NCBI RefSeq assembly: GCF_030373185.1
Contig: NZ_JAUCZH010000002.1
Coordinates: forward strand, 290,151 to 354,150
Direction of reading: 5' to 3'
Source of the DNA: Tabrizicola sp.
GTDB lineage: Bacteria; Pseudomonadota; Alphaproteobacteria; Rhodobacterales; Rhodobacteraceae
DNA length: 64,000 nt
Part shown: one piece after another, positions 5,687-52,039 of the stretch
Layout: each line of letters begins with the position of its first letter
Numbering within the stretch: position 1 is the first letter of the stretch
Position numbers and translations under genes: made by a program
The notes under the pieces: model-generated
What the model was told of the DNA's origin: nothing
Database searches by the model: none
What the model saw: the letters and a program-made list of their open reading frames with translations, nothing else

Positions 5687-6589
5687 ATGAAGTCCGACTT
5701 GCCCCCCCTGACCTGGCTGCGCGCTTTCGAGGCCGCCGCCCGCACGCTCAGCTTCACCAATGCGGGCGCAGAGCTGAACCTGACCCAGGCGGCGGTTTCC
5801 AAGCATGTGAAGGCGCTTGAATTGTACCTGCATCAGCCCCTTTTCATCCGCCGCCCCCGCAGTCTTGAACTGACAAAATTGGGCGAGGCCTATCTGCCCA
5901 AGGTCCAGGACGCGCTGGAACGGCTCGCCACCGGCACGCGCGAGGTGTTTGGACGGCGACGCAGTCAGGTTCTGACCCTGCGCTGTGCGGTGTCCTTCGC
6001 GGTCTACTGGCTGTCGTCGCGGCTGCCCGCCTTTCTGGATGCGTATCCGGATGTTCAGGTCCGGGTGATTTCCAGCGTCTGGAACGACCCGTTCGACAAG
6101 GATGCCTTCGATCTGGATATCCAGTATGGGACCGGCGATTGGCCGGGGTTTTCCCACACTCGCCTGACGCGGGATACGATCACCCCTCTATGCGCCCCGG
6201 GACTTGCCGGGCGGAACGCTTTGCAAAGCCCGGCTGACCTGCGCCATCATCGACTTCTTCATGTGATGGGCTACCAGGAAGGTTGGGGCGTGTGGCTCAA
6301 CGCGGCCGGCGCACGCGGCGTCGATCCCGGTCAGGGCCTGCATCTGGACACGTCGCTGACTGCGTTCCGGATCGCGGCCGACGGGGGCGGCATCGCCCTG
6401 GGGCGCAGTTCGTTGGCAGCTGAAGATCTGGTGGCAGGTCGCCTGATTGCGCCTTTCGCCCTCAAGGTTCCAATCGACGAGGCTTTCTATCTTCTGGAAC
6501 CACAGATCCGACCAGCGCATCCGTTCCGCGATGTGTTCGCCAGTTGGATCAAAGGGCAAGCCTCAGCGCAACTTCCCGGTGTTTCTTGA
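5687..6589 (+). CDS. LysR-family regulator (GcvA-like)
   Basis: Start MKSDLPPLTWLRAFEAAAR; HTH LSFT..ELNLTQAAVS; divergent from the demethylase operon. Confidence 0.9.
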   Translation: MKSDLPPLTWLRAFEAAARTLSFTNAGAELNLTQAAVSKHVKALELYLHQPLFIRRPRSLELTKLGEAYLPKVQDALERLATGTREVFGRRRSQVLTLRCAVSFAVYWLSSRLPAFLDAYPDVQVRVISSVWNDPFDKDAFDLDIQYGTGDWPGFSHTRLTRDTITPLCAPGLAGRNALQSPADLRHHRLLHVMGYQEGWGVWLNAAGARGVDPGQGLHLDTSLTAFRIAADGGGIALGRSSLAAEDLVAGRLIAPFALKVPIDEAFYLLEPQIRPAHPFRDVFASWIKGQASAQLPGVS

Positions 6590-6629
6590 TCATCAGTTGT
6601 CTTTCTCAACGAAGATGGGGGGATTCTGT

Positions 6630-6770
6630 TCGCCTGAAAGCACAGTCAGAACAGGATATCAGCCAAGCGGCTCAACCCCGGGACAGACCCGCCCGGAGCC
6701 TTCCCGGCGTCCCGGCGAAAGCCAAGGCATTTGTCATGGCAAAGGCTCCGGACAAGGACCGTTCAATTCT
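6630..6770 (+). pseudogene. Remnant of the 5' end of an HSL-family esterase (paralog of 24610-25518)
   Basis: DNA aligns by eye with about 24575-24750; peptide SQAAQPRDRPARSLPGVPAKAKAFVMAKAP versus SQAAKPRDRSARNLPGMRAKAKAFAMAEAP; start codon region deleted. Confidence 0.75.
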
Positions 6771-6912: not shown

Positions 6913-7722
6913 TTACCTGAAAGAAGCACGATCAGAATCCGGCGCGAGAACATTCAGTTGTTCAGAAATCTCGCGCACCCGCGCACTGTTGTCGGGCGCA
7001 AGTCGACCATCAAGCATGTGCAGGTTGTTCTCGAAGCCTACCCTTGCCTTGCCGCCTTGCGACAAGGCGTATCTCAGGCAGGCGGTTTCGGCCTGCCCGA
7101 AGGCGCAGACCGCCCAGTCCGGGCGCAGTCCGGCGTTCTGTGCGGCGTCAAGAAAGGGGGCAAGCATCGCGGGATTGGATTGCTGCCCTGAGGAATACCG
7201 CCCCAGCACAAAGAGAACCTGCACGTCACTCACAGGCACCGTGCCGGCAGCGATTTCTGCCGCAAGCGTCCCCACTTGCGTGGCATCGTAGAGGATATGC
7301 TGCACCGCCACACCGGCCTCTGAAAGCGCATGATAGCTGCGCCGCGCCGCCGCCCGGTCGCCATCGGCCAGCATCTCGGCCAAGGCAATCGAGACACCTT
7401 CGGGCGTGATCTCTCGCAAGAGTGCACGTTGCTGGGTCGCAGTGAAGAAACCGGCGGATTCAGTCGTGATCTGCACTGGCATCGCAGGGATTGCCCGCGC
7501 CATTTCTGCAATCAACTCACGGTAAAGCCCCGCATCCAGAACATGCGCTTCGGCTGCATCGCGCACATGGGCGTGGATCGCCCCGGCCCCCATGGCATGG
7601 CAGGCGCGGGCCGTTTCCACGATCTCGGGTATGGTCACCGGCAGAGCCGGGTGATCCGCCTTGCCGCGCCGCGCGCCATTGGGGGCAACCATAATTGTGG
7701 GCAGGGGGCAAAGGCGGCTCAT
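6913..7722 (-). CDS. Beta-keto acid cleavage enzyme (BKACE/DUF849, Kce-like)
   Basis: IMVAPNGAR start motif, Zn ligands in AIHAHVRD and RVGFENN. Confidence 0.9.
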   Translation of the reverse strand: MSRLCPLPTIMVAPNGARRGKADHPALPVTIPEIVETARACHAMGAGAIHAHVRDAAEAHVLDAGLYRELIAEMARAIPAMPVQITTESAGFFTATQQRALLREITPEGVSIALAEMLADGDRAAARRSYHALSEAGVAVQHILYDATQVGTLAAEIAAGTVPVSDVQVLFVLGRYSSGQQSNPAMLAPFLDAAQNAGLRPDWAVCAFGQAETACLRYALSQGGKARVGFENNLHMLDGRLAPDNSARVREISEQLNVLAPDSDRASFR

Positions 7723-9047
7723 GTGGCCAAGGCGCCGTCAATCGCGTGAGACAGCTTGTCCACCAGTTCGCCAATCTGGTCGGGTGAAATGATGAAGGGC
7801 GGGGCAAGCAGGATATGGTCGCCGCGCTGGCCGTCGATTGTTCCACCCATCGGATAGCAGATCAGCCCTGCCTCCATGGCGCGGGTCTTGATCTGCGCGT
7901 ACAGCTTGCGCGCGGGGTCGAACGGTACCTTGGTCTCACGGTCCGCGACCAGTTCGACCCCGCGAAACAGCCCGCGCCCTCGGATATCCCCGACATGGTG
8001 GTGCTGGCCAAATCGGTCGCGCAGGGCCGTGTCCAGCAGCACGCCCATCTCCTGCACCCGCGCGAGCAAGTCCCTGCGATGGATCGCGCGCAGCACCGCC
8101 CCGGCCCCGGCAGCGGCCATGGCGTGCCCCATATAGGTATGACCGTGCTGGAAAAACCCCGACCCTGCCGCAATCGCATCATGGATCGCGCCCGAGGTCA
8201 GCAACGCGCCAATCGGCTGATAGCCCGCGCCCAGCCCCTTGGCCACGGTGATCATGTCGGGGGCCACGCCATCTTCGGTGCAGGCGTAAAGATGCCCTGT
8301 GCGGCCCATGCCACACATCACCTCGTCGAGGATCAGCAAGACGCCGTAACGGTCACATATCTCGCGGATGCGCGGCAAATAGCCGGGAACGGCAGGCACC
8401 GCGCCCATGGTCGCGCCCACCACGGGTTCGGCGACAAAGGCCATCACCGTCTCAGGCCCGAGCCGCAGGATTTCCGATTCCAGCTCATCGGCAACGCGCG
8501 CGCCATAGGCAGGCAGGCTTTCGCCCTCATGCCGGTTGCGGTAGTCGTAGCAGGGCGAGATATGGCTGGTTTCCACCAGAAGCGGCGCGAACTGCGCCCT
8601 CCGCCAGGCATTGCCGCCCGCCGCCAGCGCGCCCAGCGTATTGCCATGATAGCTTTGCCGCCGCGCAATCACCCGGTGCCGCGCGGGCTGGCCGATTTCC
8701 ATGAAATACTGCCGTGCGAGCTTGATTGCCGCCTCGACCGCCTCGGACCCGCCCGAAACCAGATAGACCCGCGAAATGCCTTCCGGCGCGGCGGCGATCA
8801 GCAGGTCGGCAAGGTCTTCGGCGGGATCCGAGGTGAAAAACCCGGTATGGGCAAAGGCCAGCCGGTCCAACTGCGCATGAAGCGCGGCGCGCACGTCCGG
8901 GTCGGAATGGCCCAGACAGGACACCGCCGCCCCGCCCGAGCCGTCGAGATAGCGCTTGCCCGTACTGTCGATCAAATAGCAGCCATCCCCTGCAGCGGCT
9001 GTCGGTAATTGACCCTTGGTGGTGCGCCCGAATACATGCCCCGGCAT
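7719..9047 (-). CDS. Class III PLP-dependent aminotransferase (omega/beta-amino acid type)
   Basis: YLDGSGGAAV, SGGSEA, SYHG, AEPVVG, DEVMCGMGRTG, TVAKGLG (PLP Lys), HGHTY. Confidence 0.9.
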   Translation of the reverse strand: MPGHVFGRTTKGQLPTAAAGDGCYLIDSTGKRYLDGSGGAAVSCLGHSDPDVRAALHAQLDRLAFAHTGFFTSDPAEDLADLLIAAAPEGISRVYLVSGGSEAVEAAIKLARQYFMEIGQPARHRVIARRQSYHGNTLGALAAGGNAWRRAQFAPLLVETSHISPCYDYRNRHEGESLPAYGARVADELESEILRLGPETVMAFVAEPVVGATMGAVPAVPGYLPRIREICDRYGVLLILDEVMCGMGRTGHLYACTEDGVAPDMITVAKGLGAGYQPIGALLTSGAIHDAIAAGSGFFQHGHTYMGHAMAAAGAGAVLRAIHRRDLLARVQEMGVLLDTALRDRFGQHHHVGDIRGRGLFRGVELVADRETKVPFDPARKLYAQIKTRAMEAGLICYPMGGTIDGQRGDHILLAPPFIISPDQIGELVDKLSHAIDGALAT

Positions 9048-9104
9048 TTGGTCCCCCTATCTGTGCCGACCAAAGAGGCACAGGCGCTTTGCCTCGACAA
9101 GCCT

Positions 9105-9911
9105 TCAGCGACTGAATGCGTTGAATACCGTCGGGCCGGACTGCCGGTTATCGATCATTGCCAAAAGAGCATTCGGCAAATCCGGGCTGTCGGGGGCAAA
9201 AAGGCCGCACATCTGCAACGAAGCGCGGACCGAAGCCCGTGGAGGCGTGCGTTCCAGCACCACGCGAACTGCACAGGGCAGGTGTTCGCTGTTTGCAGCC
9301 ACCCCCAGCTTGACCCCGTGCAGCGTACTCCAGCGCTGCGAATAGTCGGGAACGAGGATTGTCTGCGTCAGCTCGATCCCGGCACCAACTTCGTAATCTT
9401 GCAGAAAGACCCGATCTCCCGTCATGACAGAGGCCCCGACATAGCGGTATTGTCGTCTGCTGGGCTGGCCAATCGGTCCGATCCGTTCCAGCCTGCGATA
9501 CGTCATCAGATCGCCCTTCATCTCGAAGCCGAGGAGCGAGCGCAACACCAGGCCAGGGGTGGACATTGAGTAGTAATACTCAAAGAACGTCCCTTCCAGC
9601 TTGCGAATGCGATGATCGCTGAAGCGGATCACGCGGTCCAGGTGGCTGCGCAGGTCACGGGTCGACGTGTCGCTGGCAATCCCGCGCAGGCTGACCAGTT
9701 CCGCGAAATCCTCATGCGGCATCATCAACTCATGGACCTCGACGCCAAAGTAATCCCCGATGCGCCGCATCAGCGGCGCACGCGGGATCGCGGTACCGGC
9801 AAGGTATCGGTTCAACTGGCTTCGATGAATTCCAAGGTCAGACGCGACCATCGAGATCGAGGGTCGATAGCTGCACAGTAGCCGCATGTTCTGGGAAAAG
9901 TCGCGGAGCAT
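9105..9911 (-). CDS. XRE-family HTH regulator with an uncharacterised C-terminal domain
   Basis: N-terminal HTH SISMVASDLGIHRSQLNRYLAG...IGDYFGV. Confidence 0.75.
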   Translation of the reverse strand: MLRDFSQNMRLLCSYRPSISMVASDLGIHRSQLNRYLAGTAIPRAPLMRRIGDYFGVEVHELMMPHEDFAELVSLRGIASDTSTRDLRSHLDRVIRFSDHRIRKLEGTFFEYYYSMSTPGLVLRSLLGFEMKGDLMTYRRLERIGPIGQPSRRQYRYVGASVMTGDRVFLQDYEVGAGIELTQTILVPDYSQRWSTLHGVKLGVAANSEHLPCAVRVVLERTPPRASVRASLQMCGLFAPDSPDLPNALLAMIDNRQSGPTVFNAFSR

Positions 9912-10077
9912 GTCTCTTTTTGTCTCTTCTTTCGCGTCACATAGAGATCAAGAGAGACAATTTGCTGAATTGTCAACGAGCACGAGCGCAGGCAGCCTTG
10001 CATCAGAGGTCCAGTAGAGACCGCACGAACGGGGAAGATTTGATGCTAGGGACTCGTCCTTTTGGGCGCGCGATCGC

Positions 10078-11148
10078 TTGCCAGCGCACAGGTGTCCGGT
10101 GACAGGGTCCGGTGCAGGTCTTGCCCGCATCGACGTGTCCGGCGATGCCGCCGCGCGCGGAGAGGTTCTGGGCGCCGCTGGTCGCGATGCAGTGGAACGG
10201 ATTGTCAGCCGCACCCCATTGTGGCAACGCTTGACAGCCCCCGAATTGGCCCCGGTGGTGCGGCGGATGGCAGATGCGACCCGCGTGCTGTTTCCGGAGA
10301 TTCACACCGAAATCGCCGCGATGGCCGAGGGTCTGGGATTGCCCTTTGATGTGGTCTTTGCCTGGAACGCGCGGGGCGATTTGCTGGCGGGCCTGGGCGA
10401 TGGCTGTACGACCGTCCAGATGCCCGGCGATGCGCCCGTCATCGCGCATAACGAAGACGGGTTGCCCGGGCTCATGGGTCGGTGCTTCATCGCAGATCTG
10501 CACTCCGATGGCGCGCCAAAAGCCGTAAGCTTCTGCTATCCCGGATCAATCCCCGGCCACAGCTTTGCCGTGACGGGGGCAGGACTTGTGATCACGGTCA
10601 ACAATCTGCGACTTCGGGGTGTCGCCCCTGACATTCCGCGCATGGTGCTGACGCGGGCGCTTCTGGGCGCGCCCGACCGTGACGCGGCGGTGCGACTGTT
10701 GCGCGATGCGCCGCCCAGCGGGGGGTTTCACCTTTCCATCGGGCAGGTTGGCGCAACCGATATCTGGTCGGTCAGTTTTGGCGGCAGCGAGGTGCATGTG
10801 GTCAAGCATGTCCGCCCTGCGTTGCACAGCAACCATGCGTTGGTCAGCGGGCCGGTCATGTCATGTCAGGCCATCACCGCATCTTCGCGGGATCGTTTGC
10901 AGCGCGGTGGCACCCTGCTGGCAGGCGGCGCCGCCGCGCTGACGATCTTGAACGATACCGGTGGCCCCGGCCTTCCGATCTTTCGCGCCGCACCAGACGA
11001 CCCCGATGATGAGAACACCATCGCTCAGTTCCTGGCGCGGATCACGGCAACAGGAATTGCCTGGCAGGTTCACGCACCCGGGCAGGATTTGCCCACACAT
11101 GCAGGGGTCATGCCCCTGCCCGAGAAAGTGCCGACTGCCAGGCACTGA
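10078..11148 (+). CDS. Peptidase C45 / Ntn-hydrolase (acyl-CoA:6-APA acyltransferase-like); true start uncertain
   Basis: WNARGD...DG|CTT autoprocessing site with nucleophile Cys, AHNEDG, PG..F, HSNH. Confidence 0.85.
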   Translation: MPAHRCPVTGSGAGLARIDVSGDAAARGEVLGAAGRDAVERIVSRTPLWQRLTAPELAPVVRRMADATRVLFPEIHTEIAAMAEGLGLPFDVVFAWNARGDLLAGLGDGCTTVQMPGDAPVIAHNEDGLPGLMGRCFIADLHSDGAPKAVSFCYPGSIPGHSFAVTGAGLVITVNNLRLRGVAPDIPRMVLTRALLGAPDRDAAVRLLRDAPPSGGFHLSIGQVGATDIWSVSFGGSEVHVVKHVRPALHSNHALVSGPVMSCQAITASSRDRLQRGGTLLAGGAAALTILNDTGGPGLPIFRAAPDDPDDENTIAQFLARITATGIAWQVHAPGQDLPTHAGVMPLPEKVPTARH

Positions 11149-11229
11149 CCACAGACAAACCCCGATCGGCACGTCTGGCGGGGCGACGTGCCGGCCCTTC
11201 ATTCCCGCAGCCACAGGAGAGAGACTGCC

Positions 11230-12477
11230 ATGACGACACGTTTCCTGACGACAGCCGCAGCATTAGCCATGACGACTGCGCTGACCGTCCCGGCGCTGGC
11301 CGCAGATTGCCCGATCAAGATCGGTGCCACCGCTCCATTGTCCGCCCCCGGCGCCGTCACCGGTGGCGAAGCAATGCGCGACGCCATGGCCATCGCCGAA
11401 GCCGACATCAACGCCGCTGGTGGTGTACTGGGCTGCGAGGTGCAGGTGATCGTCGCAGATGATGAGGGCCTACCCGAACGGGGCCGCGCCGTGATGGAGC
11501 GCCTGATAACGCAGGATGGTGTGGTCGCCGTTGGCGGCGGGTATCATTCTTCGGTTGGTCTGGCGAACATGGAAGTGGCCGATGCGGCAGGCATTCCGGT
11601 TGTCTATGCCGAGACCTGGAACGATGGCATTACCGGCAAGGGCCTCAAGCACATCTTCCGCATCGCGCCCTTGTCATCTGAAGTGGCACGGATCTTTGCA
11701 GACTTTGCCGCGACGGTGCCGGGCGTGAAAAAAGTGGTGCTGGTGGCCGAGAACACCGACTACGGCCTGCCCGCATCGGAACAGACCAAAGCAGGGCTGG
11801 AAAAATCCGGCATCACCTCGTCGGTCTTCACTGTCGATATCGGCACGCAGGATTTCTCGGGGATCATCGAGCGGATCAAGGCCGAAGATCCCGACATGAT
11901 CATCCAGCTTCTGACCGGCGAGGCCAGCTACAACTTTACCCAGCAGTCAGCCGAGGCCGGGATCGGCCCGCAAGACCTGCCCACCACCTGCGACCAGGCT
12001 GCGCTGGAATCCGGTGCCTTCTGGCAGAACGTACCCGACGGCAACCTGTGCTTTGTGAATGCCGTTGGCCTGCCGCGCGCGCTTTACAACGACAAGACCA
12101 ATGCCTTCGTCGCAGCCTATACCGCCCGGACCGGTAAATCGGCGGCTGAATCCTATGCGATGGAAGCTTACGACTCGATCATGATCCTGGCCGAGGCGAT
12201 GAAGATCGCCGGGTCCACCGACGGGGATGCCATCGTCACCGCGCTGGAAAACATCACCTACCAAGGTACACTGGGCGAGATCAGCTTCCCTTACAATTCG
12301 ACAAATCCGCCGGCTGCGGCGGGCGTTGCGCCCTATTTCTGGCATCAGTTCCCGAACCCCGCGGTGACCATGGTTCAGTATCAGGAACCCGGCCAGCTTG
12401 CGGCGGATGCGCCGAACCTTTTCCCACCGCAGTTCAAGACGGGTGAGCCGGTCTGGCCTGCTTCGGTCAAACAGTAA
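11230..12477 (+). CDS. Branched-chain amino acid-type (LivJ/K-like) ABC substrate-binding protein
   Basis: AGGAGA RBS; Sec signal; IKIGATAPLSAPG, GGYHSSV, ENTDYG, YAMEAYD. Confidence 0.9.
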   Translation: MTTRFLTTAAALAMTTALTVPALAADCPIKIGATAPLSAPGAVTGGEAMRDAMAIAEADINAAGGVLGCEVQVIVADDEGLPERGRAVMERLITQDGVVAVGGGYHSSVGLANMEVADAAGIPVVYAETWNDGITGKGLKHIFRIAPLSSEVARIFADFAATVPGVKKVVLVAENTDYGLPASEQTKAGLEKSGITSSVFTVDIGTQDFSGIIERIKAEDPDMIIQLLTGEASYNFTQQSAEAGIGPQDLPTTCDQAALESGAFWQNVPDGNLCFVNAVGLPRALYNDKTNAFVAAYTARTGKSAAESYAMEAYDSIMILAEAMKIAGSTDGDAIVTALENITYQGTLGEISFPYNSTNPPAAAGVAPYFWHQFPNPAVTMVQYQEPGQLAADAPNLFPPQFKTGEPVWPASVKQ

Positions 12478-12484
12478 GAGGGGC

Positions 12485-13729
12485 ATGCCGATGGACCATC
12501 CGGGGTTCTTTTCCTTGGCCATTCTCTGGATGGTCCTGTGGGGTGCGATTGGCGGGGCGGCCATCCGCCGCGCCTATCTTGCCCGCGATCTTGACGTGAC
12601 AGCCGCGCGCACTGTCGGCGTGGCTGTCGGAGCGGCGACGGGGCCGCTTGGCCTTGTCCCGCTTTACCTGCGGACGCCGACGCTGACCCGCGCTTGGCAA
12701 ACGCTGCCCTGGATCGGGGTTCTGCTGGTGTTCCTGCTGGCCTTCCGGGCCTCGGACCCAGACAACGTCTGCTTCGTCTCGGGCGCCTTCGTCGCCTCGC
12801 AGCTTGTGAACGGGCTGATCATGGGCACGATCTATGGGCTGATGGCGCTTGGCCTTGCCCTGATCTTTTCGATCATCGGCATCGTCAGCTTTGCCCATGG
12901 CGAGTTCTACATGATCGGCGGCATAGTGGTGTACTACATGACCGAGGTCTGGGCCCCCGGCCTTGGCCCTATTGCAGCCGTGATCGTTGCCTGCGCGGTC
13001 ACCTTTGGCATCGGCGCCACGTTCGAGCGTGCCTTTTTCACCCCGATCTACTCCGGCAAGGTGGAACGGCCGAACGAATATGCGATCCTTGTTACCTTTG
13101 GGCTGGCCTTTTTCCTGCAATACCTTGTGCAGGGGCTTTCCGGCGCGAACCCGGTCAAGGCATCACCCTTTTTCGAGCTTCCACGCAGCGAATGGCCGGA
13201 AGGCGCCCCCATCATCGAAACAACCCGGTCGAACATCAAGCTGTTCGACATGATTTCCATCTCGACCCCGCGTCTTACGGCGGCGATCCTGTCGGTGGTG
13301 ATGCTGCTTGCGCTGATCTGGTTTCTCTACAACACTTGGACGGGCCGTGCGCTGCGCGCGACCGCGCAAGACAGGCAGGCGGCCGCCGTTGCGGGCATCA
13401 ATCCGGGGCGGATGAACATGCTGGCCTTTGGTCTGGGCTGCATGCTGGCGGGCCTTGCCGGAGCAGTTCTGGTACAGGCGTTTTCCTGGCTACCCCAGAC
13501 AGGTGCCATTCCGGCGCTCCGTGCATTCGTGATCATCGTGCTGGGTGGGCTTGGGTCGCTGCCCGGAGCCTTCATCGGCGGGCTGATCCTTGGCCTGGTC
13601 GAGGCGGCAGGATCAGGCTGTGTGCCGGACCCGACCCGCGCGGCGGCCTATCTGCCGGCCTACGGCATGATCATCCTTACACTTGTTCTTCTCCTGCGTC
13701 CGCAGGGCCTGTTCGGGAGGAAAGCATGA
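12485..13729 (+). CDS. LivH-like ABC permease with an N-terminal extension
   Basis: QLVNGLIMGTIYGLMALGLALIFS, FAHGEFYMIGG, GRALRATAQDRQAA..GINP, LGGLGSLPGA. Confidence 0.9.
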   Translation: MPMDHPGFFSLAILWMVLWGAIGGAAIRRAYLARDLDVTAARTVGVAVGAATGPLGLVPLYLRTPTLTRAWQTLPWIGVLLVFLLAFRASDPDNVCFVSGAFVASQLVNGLIMGTIYGLMALGLALIFSIIGIVSFAHGEFYMIGGIVVYYMTEVWAPGLGPIAAVIVACAVTFGIGATFERAFFTPIYSGKVERPNEYAILVTFGLAFFLQYLVQGLSGANPVKASPFFELPRSEWPEGAPIIETTRSNIKLFDMISISTPRLTAAILSVVMLLALIWFLYNTWTGRALRATAQDRQAAAVAGINPGRMNMLAFGLGCMLAGLAGAVLVQAFSWLPQTGAIPALRAFVIIVLGGLGSLPGAFIGGLILGLVEAAGSGCVPDPTRAAAYLPAYGMIILTLVLLLRPQGLFGRKA

Positions 13730-14912
13730 TTACCCATGCCCCCAAGGCCGCCGGATATGTCGCGGCCGCCCTTCTGGTGCTGTTCCCGCTGGTCTATTCC
13801 GCTGGTAACTATGACTTCGTGATGCATCTCTGGATCACGGCCTTCTATTACGCCATACTCGCTTCAAGCTGGGCCTTGCTGGCGGGCTATGGCGGCCAGT
13901 TTTCCTTTGCCCATCTCGCCTTCATGGCGTTGGGGGCTTACGGAGCGGGCATTCTGGACAATTATGTCGTTCTGACCTCGCTGCCCACCGGCACCTGCAC
14001 AGAGTTTGGGATCCTTGGCACCAACATCGTCCTACTGCCCCCATCGGGGACAGGCGATGCCGCGGCCTGCCTGACGGCGGCCCGCGCGACATGGCCCGAA
14101 GGGGCCACGGTCAGCCGCTTTCCGCTGCTACTGCAGATCGCATTTGGCGCCATCGTGGGCGGTGGGGCTGGCTGGCTGATCGGCACGCTGGTCTTGCGGC
14201 TGCGCGCGGCCTACCTTGCGCTTTTCACCGTGGGTCTGTCGGAAATCCTGCGCGCGGTCCTGTCCGCCGAGATTTGGCTGACCCGCGGGCAGGCCGGAAT
14301 GCCGATGAGCCCGCTCTTTCCCGACGGCGTGACCATCCTGGGAACATCCTATGGCCCGGCGGCCAAACTGCCCGCCTATTACGTCATGCTGGCGCTGTTC
14401 CTTGGGACCCTCGCGTTGCTTCTGTGGGTGGCGCGGTCACGCATCGGGCTGTTCCTGCGGTCCCTGCGCGAGGACGAAGACGCAGCCGAGGCGCTGGGCG
14501 TCAATACCGTGAAATGGAAGCGGGCGGTCTTTGTGTTGACGGCGGCCATCGCGGCCACGGCCGGGGCGGTGCAGGGGCATTATGTCGGGCTTATCACCCC
14601 CAATACCATCGTCCTTCTGCAGATGTCGCTGGTCATCGCCATGGCAGTGATCGGAGGGCTGGAGAACGTGGTGGCCGCCGCAGTAGGCGCGATCCTGATT
14701 TCCTTCGCGCTTGAATTCCTGCGGACGGATTTCACCATCCTTGGCTTTGAAATCGACATGACGACATGGCGCCTCGTCTTCTTTGGCCTGCTCTTGATGC
14801 TGACACTGCGTTTCCTGCGCAACGGGGTCATCCAAGGGGCATTGATGTGGATCGAACGGCGCGGCGTGGGCGCGGAAACCGTCGCCAAGCGACGCGCGGC
14901 GGAGGAAGCGAA

Positions 14913-14916
<4 letters not shown>
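13726..14916 (+). CDS. LivM-like ABC permease
   Basis: GYGGQFSFAH, LRLRAAYLALFT, LTRGQAG, LREDEDAAEALGVN, IGGL. Confidence 0.9.
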
Positions 14917-15672
<756 letters not shown>

Positions 15673-15680
<8 letters not shown>

Positions 15681-16377
15681 AGTGCGCAACATGGACGTCG
15701 GTTATTACCGCGATCTGAACATCCTTTCGGCGCTGAACCTTGATGTGAAGCCGGGGCAGATCGTCACCATCCTGGGCGCGAACGGAGTGGGAAAGTCAAC
15801 TTCTCTCAAGGCGATCTACGGGTTTCTACGCCCCAATGGCGGCACGATCCACTTGAACGGCCAACCCCTGATCAACGTGCCGACGCACGAACGTATCAAC
15901 CTTGGGCTGGCCTATATCCCCCAGCACCCCGGTGTCTTTCGCGAGATGACGGTCGAAGAGAACCTTCTGCTTGGTGCTTGGACCTTCCGCCGCGACAAGG
16001 CCCGCATCGCCCGCAAACTCGAGGAGCAATACAGCCGCTTTCCGGTGCTCAAGGAAAAGCGCAGGCAGCCGTCGGGGCAGTTGTCCGGTGGCCAGCAGCG
16101 CATGATCGAGATCGGCCGCACCCTGATGGGCAACCCCAGGGTGCTCTTGGTCGATGAACCTACGGCAGGTTTGTCCAAGACCTATGCCGAAGAGGTCTAC
16201 CAGATGCTGCGCGACCTGCGCGACCGGGACAATCTGGGCATCCTCCTTGTCGATCAGGAAATCCGCCACGCCCTGCGGATCGCCGATTACGTCTATGTGC
16301 TGGAACTGGGGCGCAACAAGTTCGAAGGCCCCCCGTCGGAGTTCGGCGATCTGCAAAAGGCTTTCTGGGTGGCGTGA
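15673..16377 (+). CDS. LivF-like ABC ATPase
   Basis: GANGVGKST, LSGGQQRM, VDEPTAGL. Confidence 0.92.
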
Positions 16378-17081
16378 GGATGCGCCCCCCAGTCATTCTG
16401 ATCACCTGCGATGTGCAAGAGGCCGAAGGACAGCCCACCGAAACCCTGCTGCGCTTGCGGCTGAACTACACCTCCGCCATCGCGGCGGTGGGAGGGTTGC
16501 CCCTGATCCTGCCGCCTGCGCCCGACATGCTCGAGTCCGCGCTTGACCTGTGCAACGGGGTGCTTTTGTCTGGGTCAGACGCAGGCGTCATCGTTCCGGG
16601 CCTGCGCGCGGACCACGAAAGCCGCCTGATTGCCCGGTCCCTGGCGCGGCGCTTGCCGATCTTTGGCATCTGTCACGGCATGCAGGCGCTGGGGCAGGCT
16701 TTGGGCGGCACTGTGTTGCGCGACGTTCCAGCCTTGCTAGAGCCTCACTCGTCCCACCTGCCAAGCCCCGTGCCGGATCGCACCGCACATCCGGTGCAAG
16801 TCACCCCGGGCAACTTCTTGCACCGTCTGACCGGGGCAGACAGCATTTCCGTAAACTCGCTGCACCGCCATGCGCTGTCCAGTGATGGGCATTACGTTGT
16901 CACCGCTATCGCACCCGATGGGGTGACCGAGGCGATCGATGCAGAACGAGGGTCGTTTTGCGCGGGCGTCCAATGGCATCCCGAATACCAACTGACCGAC
17001 GCCGATACGCGCTTGCTGGAAGCCTTCCTTGCCGCCGCGCGTGACCATCAACAGAAGTCTGAAAGCGAGACCTGCCCATGA
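16374..17081 (+). CDS. Gamma-glutamyl-gamma-aminobutyrate hydrolase family (PuuD-like, peptidase C26)
   Basis: GICHGMQ (Cys nucleophile), VNSLH, VQWHPE. Confidence 0.85.
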   Translation: MRMRPPVILITCDVQEAEGQPTETLLRLRLNYTSAIAAVGGLPLILPPAPDMLESALDLCNGVLLSGSDAGVIVPGLRADHESRLIARSLARRLPIFGICHGMQALGQALGGTVLRDVPALLEPHSSHLPSPVPDRTAHPVQVTPGNFLHRLTGADSISVNSLHRHALSSDGHYVVTAIAPDGVTEAIDAERGSFCAGVQWHPEYQLTDADTRLLEAFLAAARDHQQKSESETCP

Positions 17082-17941
17082 CCCGGATTGTCCATGTGAA
17101 CGGCGAAACCCTGCCCGAAGCCAAGGCCCGAATTTCGATCTTTGACCGCGGGTTCCTGATGGCTGATGCTGTGTACGAGGTAACAAGCGTTCTCGAGCGC
17201 AAGCTGGTCGATTTTTCCGGACACCTGACACGACTGCGCCGGTCATTGGATGCACTCGAGATTCCCGATCCCCATGACGATGCGACCTGGCTTGCCCTGC
17301 ACCGCGAGATGGTGGTGCTGAACAACCTTGGCGAAGGCCTGATCTATCTTCAGGTCACCCGTGGTGCGCCGGGAGACCGTGATTTCGTCTGGCCCGATCC
17401 GGCCCGTTGTCCGCCCAGCGTTGTGCTGTTCACCCAGTCAAAACCGCAGCTTGCCGACAACCCGGACGCGAGGCGCGGCTGGTCGGTCATTGCGCTCGAC
17501 GATATCCGCTGGGGGCGCCGCGACATCAAGACGGTGCAGCTGCTCTCGTCCTCCTGGGCCAAGATGATCGCGCGACGCGCCGGAGCAGACGACGCCTGGC
17601 TGGTGCAGGACGGCTTCGTGACCGAAGGAACATCGAACAACGCCCATATCCTGCGTGGCGACCGGATCATCACAAGACCCTTGTCCAACGAAATCCTTCA
17701 CGGGATCACCCGTGCCGCCCTTCTCAGACTGGCAAGCGACGCTCGGATCAAGATCGAAGAACGCCCCTTTACCCTGTCCGAAGCAAAGGCGGCCGATGAA
17801 GCGTTCGTTACTTCTGCCAGCTCTTTTGTAATGCCTGTCGTGAGCATCGACGGCATCTTGATCGGGAATGGTAGCCCCGGCCCGATATCCGTCGGGCTGC
17901 GTGAGATATATATTGACGAGATGCGGAAATCTGCATTGTGA
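17078..17941 (+). CDS. dat: D-amino-acid transaminase (PLP class IV)
   Basis: ISIFDRGFLMADAVYEV, IYLQVTRG, RWGRRDIKTVQLL, EGTSNN, ILHGITR. Confidence 0.88.
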   Translation: MTRIVHVNGETLPEAKARISIFDRGFLMADAVYEVTSVLERKLVDFSGHLTRLRRSLDALEIPDPHDDATWLALHREMVVLNNLGEGLIYLQVTRGAPGDRDFVWPDPARCPPSVVLFTQSKPQLADNPDARRGWSVIALDDIRWGRRDIKTVQLLSSSWAKMIARRAGADDAWLVQDGFVTEGTSNNAHILRGDRIITRPLSNEILHGITRAALLRLASDARIKIEERPFTLSEAKAADEAFVTSASSFVMPVVSIDGILIGNGSPGPISVGLREIYIDEMRKSAL

Positions 17942-18026
17942 GTCACTTCTTTCGTGGGCTGACACCACGCATGGTCATGACCTGTGACCTGCCATTGGTC
18001 TTTCATCCAGCCACGACCGGAGCCCG

Positions 18027-18623
18027 GTGGTCATTTACGCCTTTCGGCGCGGGTTGAGCAATCGCCCGGCGCGCGGAACTCTTATCGCGTGCGGCGGGAC
18101 GGGCGATTGCGGCGGTCAGGTGCAGGGCAAAGTCTGCGGGGGTCTGGAAGCTGGTGAAACGACCGGGACGATCATCCTGATCCTGCTGTTCTCGTTCATG
18201 ATCGGCCGGATCATGGTGGCTGAAGGTGTGCCACAGGACTTGACCGAGGCCGTGACCGGGGTGACCGACAGCACCATTCTGATCCTTTTGCTGGTGAACG
18301 CCTTCCTGATCTTCGTCGGCATGATCATGGATGACCTGTCCGTAACCGTCGTGATTGCACCGCTGATGATGCCCCTCGTCATTTCGCACGGCGTTGACCC
18401 GGTACACTATGCCTCGATTGTGGCCTGTTCCGCAGTCATCGGGGCGAACAGCCCACCGGTCGCCCCGATCCTTTACATGGCTTGTCGCATAGGCAAGGTC
18501 TCGATCCATCATGCCGTCGTCCCGGCGCTGCAACTGATCGCCTTCGTCGCCTTGCCTGTCATGTTGCTTGTGACCTTTGTCCCGGAACTCTCGCTGTTTC
18601 TGCCCCGACTTCTGGGATTCTGA
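18027..18623 (+). pseudogene. TRAP transporter large permease (DctM), C-terminal fragment
   Basis: Only about 160 C-terminal aa are recognisable (FLIFVGMIMD, GVDPVH, NSPPVAPILY, LVTFVPELSLFLP); no dctP or dctQ nearby. Confidence 0.75.
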
Positions 18624-18636
18624 GCGACGGATCGGC

Positions 18637-19386
18637 ATGATGAAACTGACACTTGCCCTCTGGCAGCGGGCGTCCATGCAATGGTCCGGGGATGAATTTC
18701 TTCAGGCGCTGGACGAAGCAATGGCGCAGACCGAAGCCGATGTGTTCATCACACCCGAGTTGTGTTGGCCGGGCTACGGCGATGCCCGGTCGTCAAGGGA
18801 CGACGCAGTGGGCCAGGCCAGTTCCCTGATAACGTCGGTGCGCGCCATCGTCCTTGGCTATGCCGAGGCCGATGGAGCCAGGCTGTTCAACAGCGCGATG
18901 TGCATAGATGCCCACGGCGCCATCGTTGCGAACTACCGCAAGCAGACCACGGCCAATGACTATGAACGCCTTTGCTTTGGCAAGGGAAGCCATGGACCGA
19001 TTTTCCTGTTGAACGGGGTGCCGACATCGGTCTTGATTTGCCTGGACGTGGAATTCCCCGAACTTGTCCGCCGCGCCAGCCTGGACGGTGCTCATCTGTT
19101 GATCGTGCCAACAGCGCTTGCCCCAAGGTGGCGCGTAGTACCCGAGATGGTTATTCCGACCAGGGCCTACGAGAACGGAATATTTGTAGCCTATTGCAAT
19201 TACGCCACGGGAAGCGATGCCGGTCCTTTCTGCGGCCTGAGCCTTGTGGCAGGCCCGGATGGGCGCACGATTGCAAATGCCCAATTCGGCGACTGCATTC
19301 TGGAGGCGACGATAGAGTCCGGTCAGGTGGCAGAGGCACGCAGTCATCTGGATTACCTTCGGCATCTTGAACTGTTGCGATACTGA
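18637..19386 (+). CDS. Carbon-nitrogen hydrolase (nitrilase superfamily amidase)
   Basis: Triad Glu (TPELCWPGY), Lys (NYRKQ), Cys (LICLDVEFPE); RAYENG. Confidence 0.85.
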   Translation: MMKLTLALWQRASMQWSGDEFLQALDEAMAQTEADVFITPELCWPGYGDARSSRDDAVGQASSLITSVRAIVLGYAEADGARLFNSAMCIDAHGAIVANYRKQTTANDYERLCFGKGSHGPIFLLNGVPTSVLICLDVEFPELVRRASLDGAHLLIVPTALAPRWRVVPEMVIPTRAYENGIFVAYCNYATGSDAGPFCGLSLVAGPDGRTIANAQFGDCILEATIESGQVAEARSHLDYLRHLELLRY

Positions 19387-19820
19387 TGCTGTCCTGCGGG
19401 GCGGCATCGGTGGCCGACTGCTTCGTCCCGCGACCGGGTCGTTGCCGAGGAAAGAATGCTGCGCGATGCAGGAAGGACTGCAATGCGGGACAGAGGTGCA
19501 GTGCGGCGAACGGCAGGTTCGGGCTGAAAGCGGCCACTGGCCTCAGTCGACCGTCACCTGCCAATTCGGCGAAGACGGGATTGCCACATTCTTTCGTGGC
19601 ATGACGCCAATGCCTCTCAAGATCGTTTCCATGGATAGGGCTTGGGCGGCGCAAACTGGAAGGAAACGCCCGCGACATGGCAGAGATTTCCAATAGCCAG
19701 ACCAGTTTACACAGCCTAAGTTGGGCGTGGCTTGCGGAATTTTCACCAGTTCAGAGCCCTGATGCAGTCTGCACTCTGCTGGGTCTCTGACGCAGGCTGA
19801 AAACGGAGAATGGATTTGTC

Positions 19821-20345
19821 ATGAAACTTGCTGTTGTTCTTTGCACAGTTGTCGGCTTTGGCGCTCCGGCACTGGCTTTCGAGATCGAGGAGATCGGAAC
19901 GATTGAAGCGACCTTCGATGGTGAGAGTATCTCCCAACCGACAGTCATGGTGCGCGACGGGGATGTCGAGCAGGCGACGGCGTTTCTGTTTCTGGCCGGT
20001 GCCGGGATTTCGGCCTTCAGCGTGTCAGGCTACAGCGCGGACAACAAACGGCTGAGCGTCGAAGTCAACTTCCTGGCGGAAGATATCGGGCCTGCGACTG
20101 CGCCCTTCGGCCTGACCATCAGTTATGCGCCAGAAGGCACCGCGCTCCATTGGACATCCGAAGAAGCGCCAACACCTCCCAGCGTGACCTTCTCGACGCT
20201 TGAGATCGTCGGTAACGAAGGCCGCGCTACGGGAACCTTCGCGGCCTTGCTTTGCTATGCTGAAGGGTACGAGTCGGGCGGCGACCCCGAAAACTGTCGC
20301 CCGATCGAAGGCCGCTTCGACACGCCGTTCTTTGTCGAGCAATGA
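19821..20345 (+). CDS. Hypothetical exported protein
   Basis: Sec signal MKLAVVLC...PALA; acidic, beta-rich; C-terminal Cys pair. Confidence 0.75.
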   Translation: MKLAVVLCTVVGFGAPALAFEIEEIGTIEATFDGESISQPTVMVRDGDVEQATAFLFLAGAGISAFSVSGYSADNKRLSVEVNFLAEDIGPATAPFGLTISYAPEGTALHWTSEEAPTPPSVTFSTLEIVGNEGRATGTFAALLCYAEGYESGGDPENCRPIEGRFDTPFFVEQ

Positions 20346-20379
20346 TGACTGCCGGGCAAATCCAGGGAAAGGGCTGCCA

Positions 20380-20958
20380 ATGAACTGGGCGTTGACGACA
20401 ATGAGTCTGTTTGTGATGGCCTGCGCCACCAGCTCCATGGCCAATGAATCATCATACTGCGGCAAGTCCGGCGCAGAGACCTGGGACGAGATCGCGGAGT
20501 CCCTTGTCGGTCACTGGACGATCACCCATCAATCCGGCTACGCGCTTGCGGGCGGAATGGTGATACCGTTCCCGGGTGACCCGGAATTGGAAGTGCTGAC
20601 CATCGCCCAGATTGGCGATGTGCTGGAGGCAAGCCACCCCGAAATGCAGGCCCCGATGGTTCTGCGCCTTGCCGATGAGCCGCGCTGGGCAATGGAAACG
20701 GATGATCCCTCTTTGCCCAAACCGACGCTGACCCTCTCGGATCTCGAACTGGTCGTGGGATGTGAACAGATGGAGCTTCCGCGGATCATCGGCACCACAA
20801 CTGCGGTGGTCGATGGCATCAAGATGGATTTCGTGAACCGATTGATATTGATCAATCCCAGAACCCTTTACGGCGTGATGGAAATGAACACCGTCGCGCG
20901 CGGAACGCCGGTAAGGGCCGTGCGTACCGTTTCGTTGACCCGCGATGTCGCGCAATAG
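20380..20958 (+). CDS. Hypothetical exported protein
   Basis: Signal-like N-terminus MNWALTTMSLFVMACATSSMA; in line with neighbouring genes. Confidence 0.7.
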   Translation: MNWALTTMSLFVMACATSSMANESSYCGKSGAETWDEIAESLVGHWTITHQSGYALAGGMVIPFPGDPELEVLTIAQIGDVLEASHPEMQAPMVLRLADEPRWAMETDDPSLPKPTLTLSDLELVVGCEQMELPRIIGTTTAVVDGIKMDFVNRLILINPRTLYGVMEMNTVARGTPVRAVRTVSLTRDVAQ

Positions 20959-21004
20959 CGCGATTGGCCGGGCAGGATCGCCAGAGCAGAGGGGAGACTT
21001 GCCC

Positions 21005-21403
21005 GTGACACATCGGTTTGCACTTGCTGTCGCCTTGGCACTTGCCCCCGGGCTGGCCGCTGCGGCGGATCGCCATACCTGCAAGATGATCGAAAAATTG
21101 TTGGAAACCACCGATCGGGGGCTGGAAGCGGTCGCCGCCGGAACCGCCGCCGGGCTGCCCGCAAGCGGCATCGCCACTTATGCGCGACAAGCGCAGGAGT
21201 TCGCGGCCCAATTCTCGACCAGAGACCCGCTTCCGGACAATGTGGTTGCTGCCTTGTCGGATATGGCGGAAGCTGCCGCATCGGTATTCTCGATTGCCGA
21301 GGCGGCTCCGGCCTTGCTTGACCCCGCACTGGTCGTCCATCAGGCGATGCCACAGGTTTGCCCGCAGTCAGAGGTGCCGGATCTGACGCGCCATCGGGTG
21401 TAG
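21005..21403 (+). CDS. Hypothetical exported protein
   Basis: AGGGGGAG RBS, GTG start, signal MTHRFALAVALALAPGLAAA; two Cys. Confidence 0.7.
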   Translation: MTHRFALAVALALAPGLAAAADRHTCKMIEKLLETTDRGLEAVAAGTAAGLPASGIATYARQAQEFAAQFSTRDPLPDNVVAALSDMAEAAASVFSIAEAAPALLDPALVVHQAMPQVCPQSEVPDLTRHRV

Positions 21404-21479
21404 GTCGGGCGGCATTTGCGGCCTCGCGCCAGGATTTTTTCCTCGACCTTCGAGGTCGCGGACCAGGAAAGGACTGCCG

Positions 21480-22529
21480 ATGGCGGGATATTCGGATTTC
21501 TCCTTCACATCGCTTTGGGCGCGGATCGGTGGTGGCGCGGACAAGATGGTGGCGGCAAGCGGAAACGCGCCGCGCGGTGTGGTGGTTGGCCTGCCCGAGG
21601 CGGAGCGGGCAGCCCTTGCAGCCCAGATCACGCCGCATCTTGCAGGGCTGGAAGACCTTCGGCGGCAGACCCTGAACACGGTGGACAGCCGCGCCCGTCT
21701 ATTGGTGCCTCTGGTCGGTGGCGGGGTGTTTGCTGCTTTGCTGGTTGGCGGACAAGACGCGACCCAGGCGGTGATCTTTGGGGTTCTTGGGGCCGTGGTC
21801 GGCTGGTTCATCGCAATGGGAAATCGGTCTGGCAGCTATCAAGCCGCAGTGAAGTCCCGCTTTGCCACGGTGATATCGGCACATCTTTCCGGCTTTGACC
21901 ACGTCGTGGAGCCTGAAACCGACCTTGCGCATCTTCGCGCTTGGCGCCTGTTTCCCGACCTGCAATCCGCGCGGACCCTTGACCGGATCAAGGGCGCCCG
22001 CGACGGCAGATCGCTGTCGCTTTCGGAAATGTCGGTGGCCTATGCACCGGGCAGGCGCGGCAGTATCGACAACAGCCTCAGCCTGACGGTCGTCGAGGTG
22101 GCATCCGGCGCGGTTGACGGCGCGGTCATCGTGCTGACGCCAAAGAATGCACCGCGTCGGTTGCTTGAAACGCAGGCCAGATCGTCCGATTTGCCCATTG
22201 CAACCACGGGTGATGCCGATTTCGATGCGACCTATAGCCTGCGCGCCAGCCCGCCTGACACTGCGGGCGAGCTGTCGCCTGCGATGCGGTCTGCGATCCT
22301 TGGCTTGGGCGAACAGGGGCCTGCTGGCCGTCCATACCTTGTGTTCCTGCCGGGATATCTGGCGGTTCTGTTTCCGACAAGATTGTCAGACCTCGCCTTT
22401 CATGTTCCACCCTACTGGGTGCCAATGGATGCAGACGCCCTTCTGGCGCAGTTTGCTTCCGACCTTGCTGTCAGGAACAGCCTGATAAATGCCGTGCTGG
22501 CATTGCCAGATGGGACTGGGTCGGCCTGA
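21480..22529 (+). CDS. Membrane-anchored hypothetical protein, DUF3137-like
   Basis: Two TM helices near aa 75-115 followed by a soluble domain with DADFDATY. Confidence 0.55.
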   Translation: MAGYSDFSFTSLWARIGGGADKMVAASGNAPRGVVVGLPEAERAALAAQITPHLAGLEDLRRQTLNTVDSRARLLVPLVGGGVFAALLVGGQDATQAVIFGVLGAVVGWFIAMGNRSGSYQAAVKSRFATVISAHLSGFDHVVEPETDLAHLRAWRLFPDLQSARTLDRIKGARDGRSLSLSEMSVAYAPGRRGSIDNSLSLTVVEVASGAVDGAVIVLTPKNAPRRLLETQARSSDLPIATTGDADFDATYSLRASPPDTAGELSPAMRSAILGLGEQGPAGRPYLVFLPGYLAVLFPTRLSDLAFHVPPYWVPMDADALLAQFASDLAVRNSLINAVLALPDGTGSA

Positions 22530-22559
22530 TGCCGGTGGGCCTTGGCGTTATTTTCGGCA

Positions 22560-22735
22560 AGGCGACCGAATGGGTCGGTCAGCGATCACGTCGAGGATCT
22601 CCGCCGGGTCGCGTTTCCACCAGTTTTCGGTCGAGAATATCTCTGCTTCGCAGGGGCCGTCGTATCTGGCCCGATCCTCGACGGATTGCCGTATCATGCG
22701 CGAGTCAGCCACACCGTCGCCCATGATGCCGCGTT
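22560..22735 (-). pseudogene. C-terminal remnant of a sugar-phosphate isomerase/epimerase (xylose-isomerase-like TIM barrel)
   Basis: ERGIMGDGVADSRMIRQSVEDRARYDGPCEAEIFSTENWWKRDPAEILDVI resembles the family C-terminus (RGMMGDG...GY.G..EVEIFS..NWW). Confidence 0.6.
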
Positions 22736-22840
22736 CGGGCGCCCCCCCGGCCACGGCCGCTTTGTCGATACGGCGCCCAGCCCGGTAGCTTTGGTTCCGT
22801 CAAAGACCAAGCATGGCAGCTGCGCCCGTATATGAACCGT

Positions 22841-22965
22841 CAGATTGGTTCGGACCTGCCCAACCAATCTGCCCCCGGACACGGGTTTCATCTGCGTGGG
22901 CAACCAATCTGCCGCCCCCACGGAAAAAACTTACCATTTACATTTTAACTGACTATCGGTTAGTT
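22841..22965. promoter_or_regulatory. Cluster of inverted and direct repeats, putative operators upstream of the enolase-superfamily gene
   Basis: CAGATTGGTT-N11-AACCAATCTG at 22841-22871; CAACCAATCTGCC at 22861 and again at 22901; AACTGAC-N5-GTTAGTT at 22947-22965. Confidence 0.4.
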
Positions 22966-24231: not shown

Positions 24232-24534
24232 TTGCCGGCCTTTGATGCCAGCGCGGTCTGGGGGCTGTTCCGGGTGCGCATCCGGAGGTTCAGGTCCGGG
24301 TATTTTCCCGCGCCGGGAACGACCCTTTCAACTATGACGCCTTCGATCTGGATATCCGGCATGGCACCGGGGTTCTACCAGAGGCGGCGGCTTGCGCCCC
24401 TGGCCCTGTGGGTTCCAATCGACGAAGCCTTCTTCCTGTCAGAGCCATGTACCGGGCCGACTCATTTGTTCCGGGATGTGTTCGCCAATTGCTTCAAGGC
24501 AGAAGCCGCGCCCCAGATTTCAGGTCTCTCTTGA
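24232..24534 (+). pseudogene. Decayed copy of the GcvA-like LysR at 5687-6589 (effector-domain fragments)
   Basis: DNA blocks match about 6020-6155 and 6450-6589 (e.g. gttcaggtccgggt, gccttcgatctggatatcc, ggttccaatcgacga); HTH missing, frameshifts, internal deletion. Confidence 0.8.
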
Positions 24535-24609
24535 CCATAGGTCACTATTCTTACCAATGGCTGGAGAATACTTTTCGCCTGAAAGCACCGTCAGAACAGG
24601 ATCCCAGTC

Positions 24610-51676: not shown

Positions 51677-51772
51677 AATCATGAATGACTTCATGCGCAA
51701 TCCCCGTGACCTGCCCCCCGGAAGTTCCCTCAGTCTGATGTAGAGTCTGCCCAACCTGAGGGAGCAGACGAC

Positions 51773-52039
51773 ATGAGGAAAAGCCGTTTCACCGAGGCGC
51801 AGATTATCGGAATGATCAAGGAGCACGAGGCCGGGATTTCCGTCGCCGATCTGTGCCGCAAGCATGGCGTCAGTGATGCGACCGTTTACAAGTGGAAGGC
51901 CAAGTATGGCGGCATGGATGTCAGCGAGGCCAAACGGCTGAAGGGTCTCGAGGACGAGAACGCGCGCCTGAAACGGCTCCTCGCCGATGCGATGCTCGAC
52001 AATGCCGCGCTGAAGGATCTCTTGGGAAAAAAGTGGTGA
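51773..52039 (+). CDS. IS3 transposase OrfA
   Basis: [44 protein letters not shown]. Confidence 0.92.

Follow-up and report, generated by a model that had tools for sequence, protein, structure and literature searches.

The 3-keto-5-aminohexanoate cleavage enzyme Kce (PDB 2Y7D) and the Paracoccus denitrificans protein BKACE15 (PDB 8RIO) belong to the BKACE family of acetyl-CoA-dependent cleavage enzymes (Pfam PF05853), whose solved members show a TIM-barrel fold. In the published 2014 family screen (Bastard et al. 2014), as summarised in PMC4922564, one group, G6, is labelled "not BKACE" and is credited with decarboxylation activity, with 16 cases on beta-ketoglutarate (3-oxoglutarate), essentially no other activity and the distinguishing active-site residues R2, E6, I14, R17, F18 and N21. 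The NetSyn supplement, where the group corresponds to cluster 14, adds that the G6 enzyme decarboxylates beta-ketoglutarate and gives as its gene context a class III aminotransferase, an RpiR regulator, a TRAP solute receptor, UspA and a glutamate/aspartate transporter subunit. This core is thus known as gene context and in vitro activity, without a demonstrated pathway. In this study, a stretch of 64,000 nucleotides from Tabrizicola sp. (GCF_030373185.1, contig NZ_JAUCZH010000002.1, positions 290,151 to 354,150), here called the window, was analyzed around a divergent gene cluster at 6913-19386 that contains a G6-type gene. The locus appears to join two modules, a catabolic one (a C45 N-terminal nucleophile (Ntn) hydrolase, a class III aminotransferase and the G6 protein) and one of an XRE regulator and a Liv-type importer. 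We tentatively favor, with somewhat less than even confidence, that C45 deamidates an imported beta-glutamine-like amide, that the aminotransferase forms 3-oxoglutarate from the product and that the G6 protein converts this to acetoacetate and CO2.

Core genes were called from open reading frames (ORFs) and from Pfam and NCBIfam profile matches. Gene calling by the longest ORF or by a score of GC content at third codon positions was discarded, as in this DNA of 62% GC it gave false antisense ORFs or missed real genes. All genes listed in the original prediction, which had been made from the sequence of the window, are present with families that match the ORF and profile evidence, and no core gene has an internal stop.

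The BKACE-family gene is located at 6913-7722 on the minus strand. Its product matches PF05853 with 171.9 bits (cut-off 24.8), compared to about 338 bits for the two canonical BKACEs of the same genome, and is about 22% identical to canonical members. The zinc ligands H50, H52 and E231 as well as R227 (His46, His48, Glu230 and Arg226 in Kce) are retained and invariant in 27 subfamily members. In contrast, the catalytic glutamate (E143 in Kce, E171 in BKACE15) is replaced by Ile143, Asp231 of Kce by N232 and Glu14 by R18, as seen both in phmmer alignments with 2Y7D and 3NO5 and in MAFFT alignments with the canonical BKACEs of the genome; these substitutions, too, are invariant or nearly so across the 27 members. 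In BKACE15, the exchange E171L abolished activity (PMC11961710), and acetyl-CoA chemistry is not expected for the window protein. The sequence logos of the NetSyn supplement anchor the published residue numbering, with positions 3 and 4 being the two histidines, 14 the catalytic glutamate and 19-21 Arg-Glu-Asp. On this numbering, the window protein carries all six G6 signature residues (R18, E88, I143, R175, F208 and N232), each invariant or nearly so in the subfamily; positions 14, 19, 20 and 21 are anchored by the published logos, while E6 is the residue placed with least certainty. Because the catalytic glutamate is absent and the six signature residues are matched, we assign the protein to G6 and predict that it decarboxylates 3-oxoglutarate in a Zn-dependent manner and is no cleavage enzyme of the acetyl-CoA-dependent kind. 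The original prediction, according to which a BKACE cleaves a beta-keto acid with acetyl-CoA, is not supported on this point, and the annotation "3-keto-5-aminohexanoate cleavage protein" is a wrong label for the G6 branch.

The G6 gene is joined by an ATGA overlap to the class III aminotransferase gene (7719-9047, minus strand; NF005685, 778.7 bits vs. a cut-off of 485). The enzyme belongs to the PRK07483 family, not to GabT or PuuE, and is 84% identical to the copy on Paracoccus plasmid pPAN2 and 59% to that of Pantoea. At least 590 GTDB species genomes contain a match to the G6 subfamily, mostly those of marine Rhodobacterales and Hyphomicrobiales and some of Gammaproteobacteria. Neighboring genes were counted in 80 species loci with a G6 gene, 57 of which have at least 6 kb of flank on both sides, using tblastn panels, clustering of all ORFs and Pfam checks. 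The class III aminotransferase (60-86% identity) stands beside the G6 gene in 61 of the 80 loci and in 45 of the 57 with full flanks. A TAXI-TRAP transporter is near in 27 of the 57, a Usp gene in 27/80 (23/57) and a C45 gene near the pair in 8/80 (8/57). No counterpart was found in the 80 loci for the XRE regulator, the Liv binding protein, livH or livM of the window, nor for its C26 hydrolase, class IV aminotransferase or nitrilase-family gene.

Three layouts were seen in annotated examples. In the first, an RpiR gene lies opposite to a TAXI binding protein, a fused TRAP permease, Usp, the aminotransferase and G6, thereby repeating in these relatives the RpiR, TRAP binding protein and Usp context of cluster 14. 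In the second, the aminotransferase-G6 pair lies opposite to glnH-glnP-glnQ (names given by NCBI), C45 and RpiR, as in Fuscovulum, Paracoccus pantotrophus plasmid pPAN2 and a Rhizobium plasmid. The third is that of the window, G6-aminotransferase-XRE opposite to C45-Liv, which is kept in metagenome contig L015 at a uniform DNA identity of 76% up to the contig end. Dpp-type importers, M20 peptidases, acyl-CoA ligase with thiolase and aldehyde dehydrogenase are rarer neighbors. In all, the importers that accompany the pair fall into four types, namely TAXI-TRAP, GlnHPQ-type, Dpp-type and Liv-type. Besides the signature residues, the window shares with cluster 14 only the class III aminotransferase of the published context; its regulator is of the XRE family instead of RpiR, its ABC importer is of the Liv type instead of TAXI-TRAP or GlnHPQ, and it adds a C26 hydrolase and a D-type aminotransferase. 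It illustrates a catabolic core exchanging importer and regulator.

The C45 gene (10099-11148, plus strand; NF040521, 189.7 bits vs. a cut-off of 85) opens the rightward operon. Its ORF begins at 10078, with a likely GTG start at 10099, and the Gly-Cys processing site is intact (GDGCTT). Homologues with 42-56% identity adjoin aminotransferase-G6 pairs, and we regard C45 as a candidate amidase releasing a beta-amino acid. This part of the original prediction, in which the class III aminotransferase receives a beta-amino acid from an amide hydrolase, gained plausibility since C45 recurs with the pair on Paracoccus and Rhizobium plasmids and in L015; a GlnHPQ-type importer is its usual companion there. 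The C45 and nitrilase-family genes beside the pair in another locus (L017) were not counted, being only remotely related to the window genes. The position of C45 behind the GlnHPQ-named genes and opposite to the pair in Paracoccus, Rhizobium and Fuscovulum speaks for a glutamine-like substrate.

Taken as a route, the catabolic module has beta-glutamate (3-aminoglutarate) as its likeliest substrate, which would be delivered in amide form, for instance as beta-glutamine. C45 would take off the amide or acyl group and free beta-glutamate, and the aminotransferase, judging from its strict gene pairing with G6, would convert this to 3-oxoglutarate. The G6 protein would then form acetoacetate and CO2 without acetyl-CoA, an activity measured for the G6 group and not for the window protein, and 3-oxoacid CoA-transferases and thiolase of the host would lead acetoacetate to acetyl-CoA; the host genome encodes two pairs of 3-oxoacid CoA-transferase subunits. 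The pair is common, and the in vitro chemistry of G6 points at beta-glutamate as the substrate. Beta-glutamate and beta-glutamine are natural osmolytes (PMC1224877). As beta-glutamine is an isomer of glutamine and both compounds are one-carbon-longer beta-homologues of aspartate and asparagine, the GlnHPQ-type, TAXI and Liv importers of aspartate/asparagine (Asx) type beside the pair become intelligible. For the same reason, the Liv importer and XRE regulator could plausibly be recruited for beta-glutamate or beta-glutamine.

Several points weigh against this route. Known sources of beta-glutamate are marine or halophilic, and RpiR regulators usually sense sugar phosphates, which fits poorly with an amino-acid substrate. 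No relevant paper on the catabolism of beta-glutamate or beta-glutamine was found in the literature searched. A route for beta-glutamine alone gives the C26 hydrolase and the class IV aminotransferase nothing to do, and the binding protein, which is 92-93% identical to those of racemase-type operons (see below), may still bind aspartate or asparagine and not a beta-homologue. The G6 signature was mapped through alignment, not structure. Finally, the 3-oxoglutarate activity is that of other G6 members in a screen of 20 substrates, and oxaloacetate is absent from the activity table in PMC4922564.

This last absence also leaves room for an aspartate-type substrate, with D-aspartate or an aspartate analogue being transaminated to oxaloacetate and the G6 protein acting as oxaloacetate decarboxylase to give pyruvate. 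Oxaloacetate is likewise a beta-keto diacid, the G6 pocket is rich in arginine (R18, R99 and R175 are invariant in the subfamily), and in the window an Asx-type importer and regulator are linked to the pair. We nevertheless consider this quite improbable. The sole measured G6 activity is on a C5 acid, and C5 compounds are also suggested by the GlnHPQ-type and TAXI importers of other loci. Moreover, use of the alpha-amino group of aspartate is not known for class III aminotransferases.

A separate view on the step after transamination is offered by plasmids of Pantoea dispersa. There, the gene after an orthologue of the window aminotransferase (59% identity, no gaps) overlaps it by 4 bp. Its product is named by NCBI as carboxymuconolactone decarboxylase (CMD) family, with a weak Pfam match (20 bits vs. 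a cut-off of 23), and GlnHPQ and a C45 protein 38-39% identical to that of the window come after it. On E. coli plasmids, too, a protein of this name follows the aminotransferase in the place of G6. The resulting RpiR-aminotransferase-CMD-GlnHPQ-C45 operon and the window have the logic of importer, amidase, aminotransferase and decarboxylase in common, and the operon differs in its CMD-named protein in place of G6, its glutamine-type importer and its RpiR regulator. That a non-homologous, decarboxylase-named protein occupies the G6 slot supports decarboxylation after transamination, as far as names and gene order indicate. Pieces of the Pantoea-type operon, broken by IS26 and ISKpn26, were also seen on E. 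coli plasmids (L194, L199) and on many plasmids of Salmonella, Shigella and Klebsiella. On such resistance plasmids, a C45 remnant adjoins aph(3')-Ia and a Tn3 transposase, and gltS is nearby.

The second module begins with the XRE gene (9105-9911, minus strand; HTH_3), which lies 57 bp upstream of the class III aminotransferase gene. It is separated from C45 by a divergent control region (9912-10098) with repeated TTGTC and AATTGTC boxes. C45 is followed on the plus strand by the gene of a Liv-type (HAAT) periplasmic binding protein (11230-12477; Peripla_BP_6, signal peptide after the start) and by permease and ATPase genes matching BPD_transp_2 and ABC_tran (livHMGF, 12485-16377), namely livH (about 12485-13729), livM (13726-14916), livG (14913-15680) and livF (15673-16377). 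Only 141 clusters among 5.8 billion proteins make up this XRE family. The window protein is 34-61% identical to members with racemase, asparaginase, symporter or aspartase genes as neighbors, and its closest relatives are 75-87% identical. Among 53 loci with enough flank, 41 carry a racemase, asparaginase, symporter or aspartase gene; asparaginase, Na/Ala symporter or aspartase occurs within 6 kb in 35 and racemase in 15, while class III aminotransferase, G6, C45, C26 and class IV aminotransferase occur in none. Typical neighbors are an Asp/Glu-type racemase with LivJHMGF (L103), a racemase and asparaginase with aspartase nearby (Tistrella) and a Na/Ala symporter with asparaginase (Halomonas). 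With neither XRE nor the Liv binding protein, livH or livM found in the 80 G6 loci and the XRE family associated with Asx genes, the co-conservation of left and right operons expected in the original prediction is not general.

A canonical locus of this kind is present in the same genome. On contig C11 (locus L190), a second XRE gene (59% protein identity) lies opposite to racemase, LivJHMGF, asparaginase, Na/Ala symporter and aspartase genes, and its Liv proteins are 80-83% identical to those of the window (binding protein 80%). The Liv block of the window (11308-16386) is closer still to racemase-type operons L103 and L112, with 86% DNA and 92-97% protein identity (binding protein 92-93%), and this homology stops at the edges of the block. 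It follows that C45 stands in the place of the racemase, and C26 and the class IV aminotransferase stand in the places of asparaginase and aspartase. Compared to the canonical loci (L190, L103, L105, L106 and L112), the window has these replacements and in addition the aminotransferase-G6 pair behind the regulator, whereas the regulator family, the divergent layout, the Liv genes (80-97% protein identity) and similar AATTGTC boxes are shared. Boxes of the types AATTGTC(A/T)A and TTGTC(T/C)CTTCTTT were seen in matching places of the control regions of L015, L103 and L190, as judged by eye and not by statistics; in a promoter and terminator scan, sites were no commoner than in shuffled sequence. 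On this comparison, XRE and the Liv importer form a different module, apparently a paralogue of the genome's own aspartate/asparagine-type uptake locus.

The XRE protein consists of an N-terminal HTH domain and a C-terminal part of 160 residues, predicted as an eight-stranded beta-barrel (mean confidence score pLDDT 82.7) with weak lipocalin-type matches. In the structure model, this barrel, which has no Pfam match, looks like a small-molecule sensor tied to aspartate/asparagine genes of Alpha- and Gammaproteobacteria. The L190 locus itself (within C11:5282-25281, about 8300-19100) is intact and looks uncharacterised; the nearest named model of its racemase is the cysteate racemase CuyB, with a score far under the cut-off.

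Such a composition could also mean that two independent units came to lie side by side by rearrangement, with XRE, Liv, C26 and the class IV aminotransferase, a variant of the canonical locus, serving the uptake and deamination of D- or L-asparagine, aspartate or a glutamine-type substrate and the pair, with or without C45, serving a separately imported amino acid. The segregation of the XRE family and the Liv block with racemase, asparaginase and aspartase in the 53 loci, never with aminotransferase, G6 or C45, and the 92-97% identity of the Liv proteins to those of racemase-type operons are what this explanation would lead one to expect. The surroundings agree as well. Direct repeats about 18 kb apart (left copy with the 3' half of a LysR gene and spacer, 6033-6750; right copy, 24268-24744; 83-87% identity) bracket about 17.5 kb including the whole cluster, with other partial duplicates inside, which is consistent with insertion or a duplication-mediated rearrangement. 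Searches of 36-40 further genomes of the genus gave no hit for the island genes examined (G6, binding protein and nitrilase-family), and this absence, together with the rarity of C26, marks the locus as an accessory patchwork island. On the other side, the G6-aminotransferase-XRE and C45-Liv layout is kept in L015 at uniform identity and therefore predates any recent accident; the Liv operon is led by C45, which recurs with the pair, and no TAXI or GlnHPQ importer adjoins the pair in this genome. We thus regard two unrelated units as unlikely, albeit as a serious contender to the joined beta-glutamine route.

The rightward operon continues with a Peptidase C26/class I amidotransferase-like hydrolase gene (16374-17081, plus strand; PF07722, 132.4 bits), which overlaps livF by 4 bp, and a class IV (D-amino-acid type) aminotransferase gene (17078-17941, plus strand), which overlaps C26 by 4 bp; from livH to the latter, each junction overlaps by 4 or 8 bp. 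The C26 protein had been called PuuD-like; it reaches 95.6 bits in NF008471 against a cut-off of 266 and is a member of Pfam Peptidase_C26, not a PuuD orthologue. The Puu pathway of E. coli, with the gamma-Glu-GABA hydrolase PuuD and the GABA aminotransferase PuuE, likewise has a C26 hydrolase encoded near a class III aminotransferase; the window differs in lacking PuuA, PuuB and PuuC, in the C26 score far below the PuuD cut-off and in its PRK07483 aminotransferase. The class IV aminotransferase passes the subfamily model NF005209 (338.2 vs. 320 bits) and stays under the equivalog TIGR01121 (197 vs. 277 bits). No close C26 homologue was found in 300 genomes of the order. A homologue from Rhizobiaceae (44% identity) follows an amino-acid ABC importer and precedes a putative FAD-dependent oxidoreductase, which makes deamidation followed by D-amino-acid deamination a reasonable side branch. 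For C26 and the class IV aminotransferase of the window, the probable role is a side branch in which a D-amino-acid amide is deamidated and transaminated. Plasmids of Rhizobium and Neorhizobium (L196/L197) encode a 400-amino-acid fusion protein (named Atu1372/SO_1960 family) that includes a C26 domain; its gene lies between an amino-acid ABC importer and a putative FAD-dependent oxidoreductase, under a GlxA-type regulator. From its gene content, this looks like another amide-utilisation module.

These hydrolases also bear on the pathway proposed in the original prediction, in which three amidases split a conjugate after its import, releasing a D-amino acid as well as a beta-amino acid, and a true BKACE cleaves the resulting beta-keto acid with acetyl-CoA. 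The gene content fits, the succession of C26 and putative FAD-dependent oxidoreductase recurs behind amino-acid importers of Rhizobiaceae, and some G6 loci contain Dpp-type importers and M20 peptidases. Of the three amidases, however, only C45 recurs with the pair; C26 does not, and the nitrilase-family gene stems from a truncated duplicate of another unit. The missing catalytic glutamate and the G6 signature speak against the acetyl-CoA step, and the binding protein is nearly that of the racemase operons. Characterised Liv-type binding proteins take single amino acids, which counts against import of a conjugate. We give this model little credence compared with the beta-glutamine route.

The original prediction did not recognise the combination as a described pathway; the core combination is already contained in the NetSyn supplement, though without a demonstrated pathway. 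New are the mosaic of XRE, Liv, C45, C26 and class IV aminotransferase, the Asx-linked regulator family, the displacement of G6 by a CMD-named protein and the specific proposal of beta-glutamine or beta-glutamate as substrate, for which no publication was found in the literature searched. Nor was a paper describing aerobic bacterial consumption of the two compounds found in the library searched. It is conceivable, though we hold it with considerable doubt, that C45, class III aminotransferase and G6 represent the first aerobic route to be defined genetically for beta-glutamine and beta-glutamate, which are archaeal and marine osmolytes. The trio would then comprise a beta-glutaminase, a beta-glutamate aminotransferase and a Zn-dependent 3-oxoglutarate decarboxylase yielding acetoacetate, and in the window it would have been taken over by a regulator of a new XRE/beta-barrel kind together with an importer of Asx type.

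At the right end of the cluster, the C-terminal third of dctM (18027-18623, plus strand; DctM profile positions 266-413 of 413) is followed by a nitrilase-superfamily amidase gene (CN_hydrolase, PF00795; 18637-19386, plus strand), the likely start of which is 18637 and not 18577. Together they form a truncated duplicate of a TRAP unit located on contig C1, where a nitrilase paralogue follows the dctM copy (the dctM part is 83% and the amidase 67-68% identical in protein sequence). The homology starts at 18143, which places a rearrangement junction just after the class IV aminotransferase gene. The nitrilase-family gene is probably not part of the pathway but debris from a separate duplication together with the dctM fragment. 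Its translation contains candidate motifs of the E-K-C triad, recognized by eye without a reference alignment, and its similarity to the nitrilase-family gene of L017 is remote only.

Further to the right, about 3.5 kb (19400-22900) contain ORFs (19821-20345, 20200-20958, 21480-22529 and others) that have no Pfam or NCBIfam match and weak codon-position GC patterns; this part may be decayed sequence. An enolase-superfamily gene inside the island (22995-24206) resembles gluconate/galactonate dehydratases and scores far below all equivalog cut-offs. A link of this gene to the C26 locus of Rhizobium was dropped, as its identity to the enolase-superfamily gene near that locus is only 26% and the protein is sugar-acid dehydratase-like. 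Outside the island, 51731-52854 of the window is 81.6% identical to 12214-13335 of L112, the metagenome contig with a racemase-type XRE-Liv operon, which hints at a related genome or a common mobile region.

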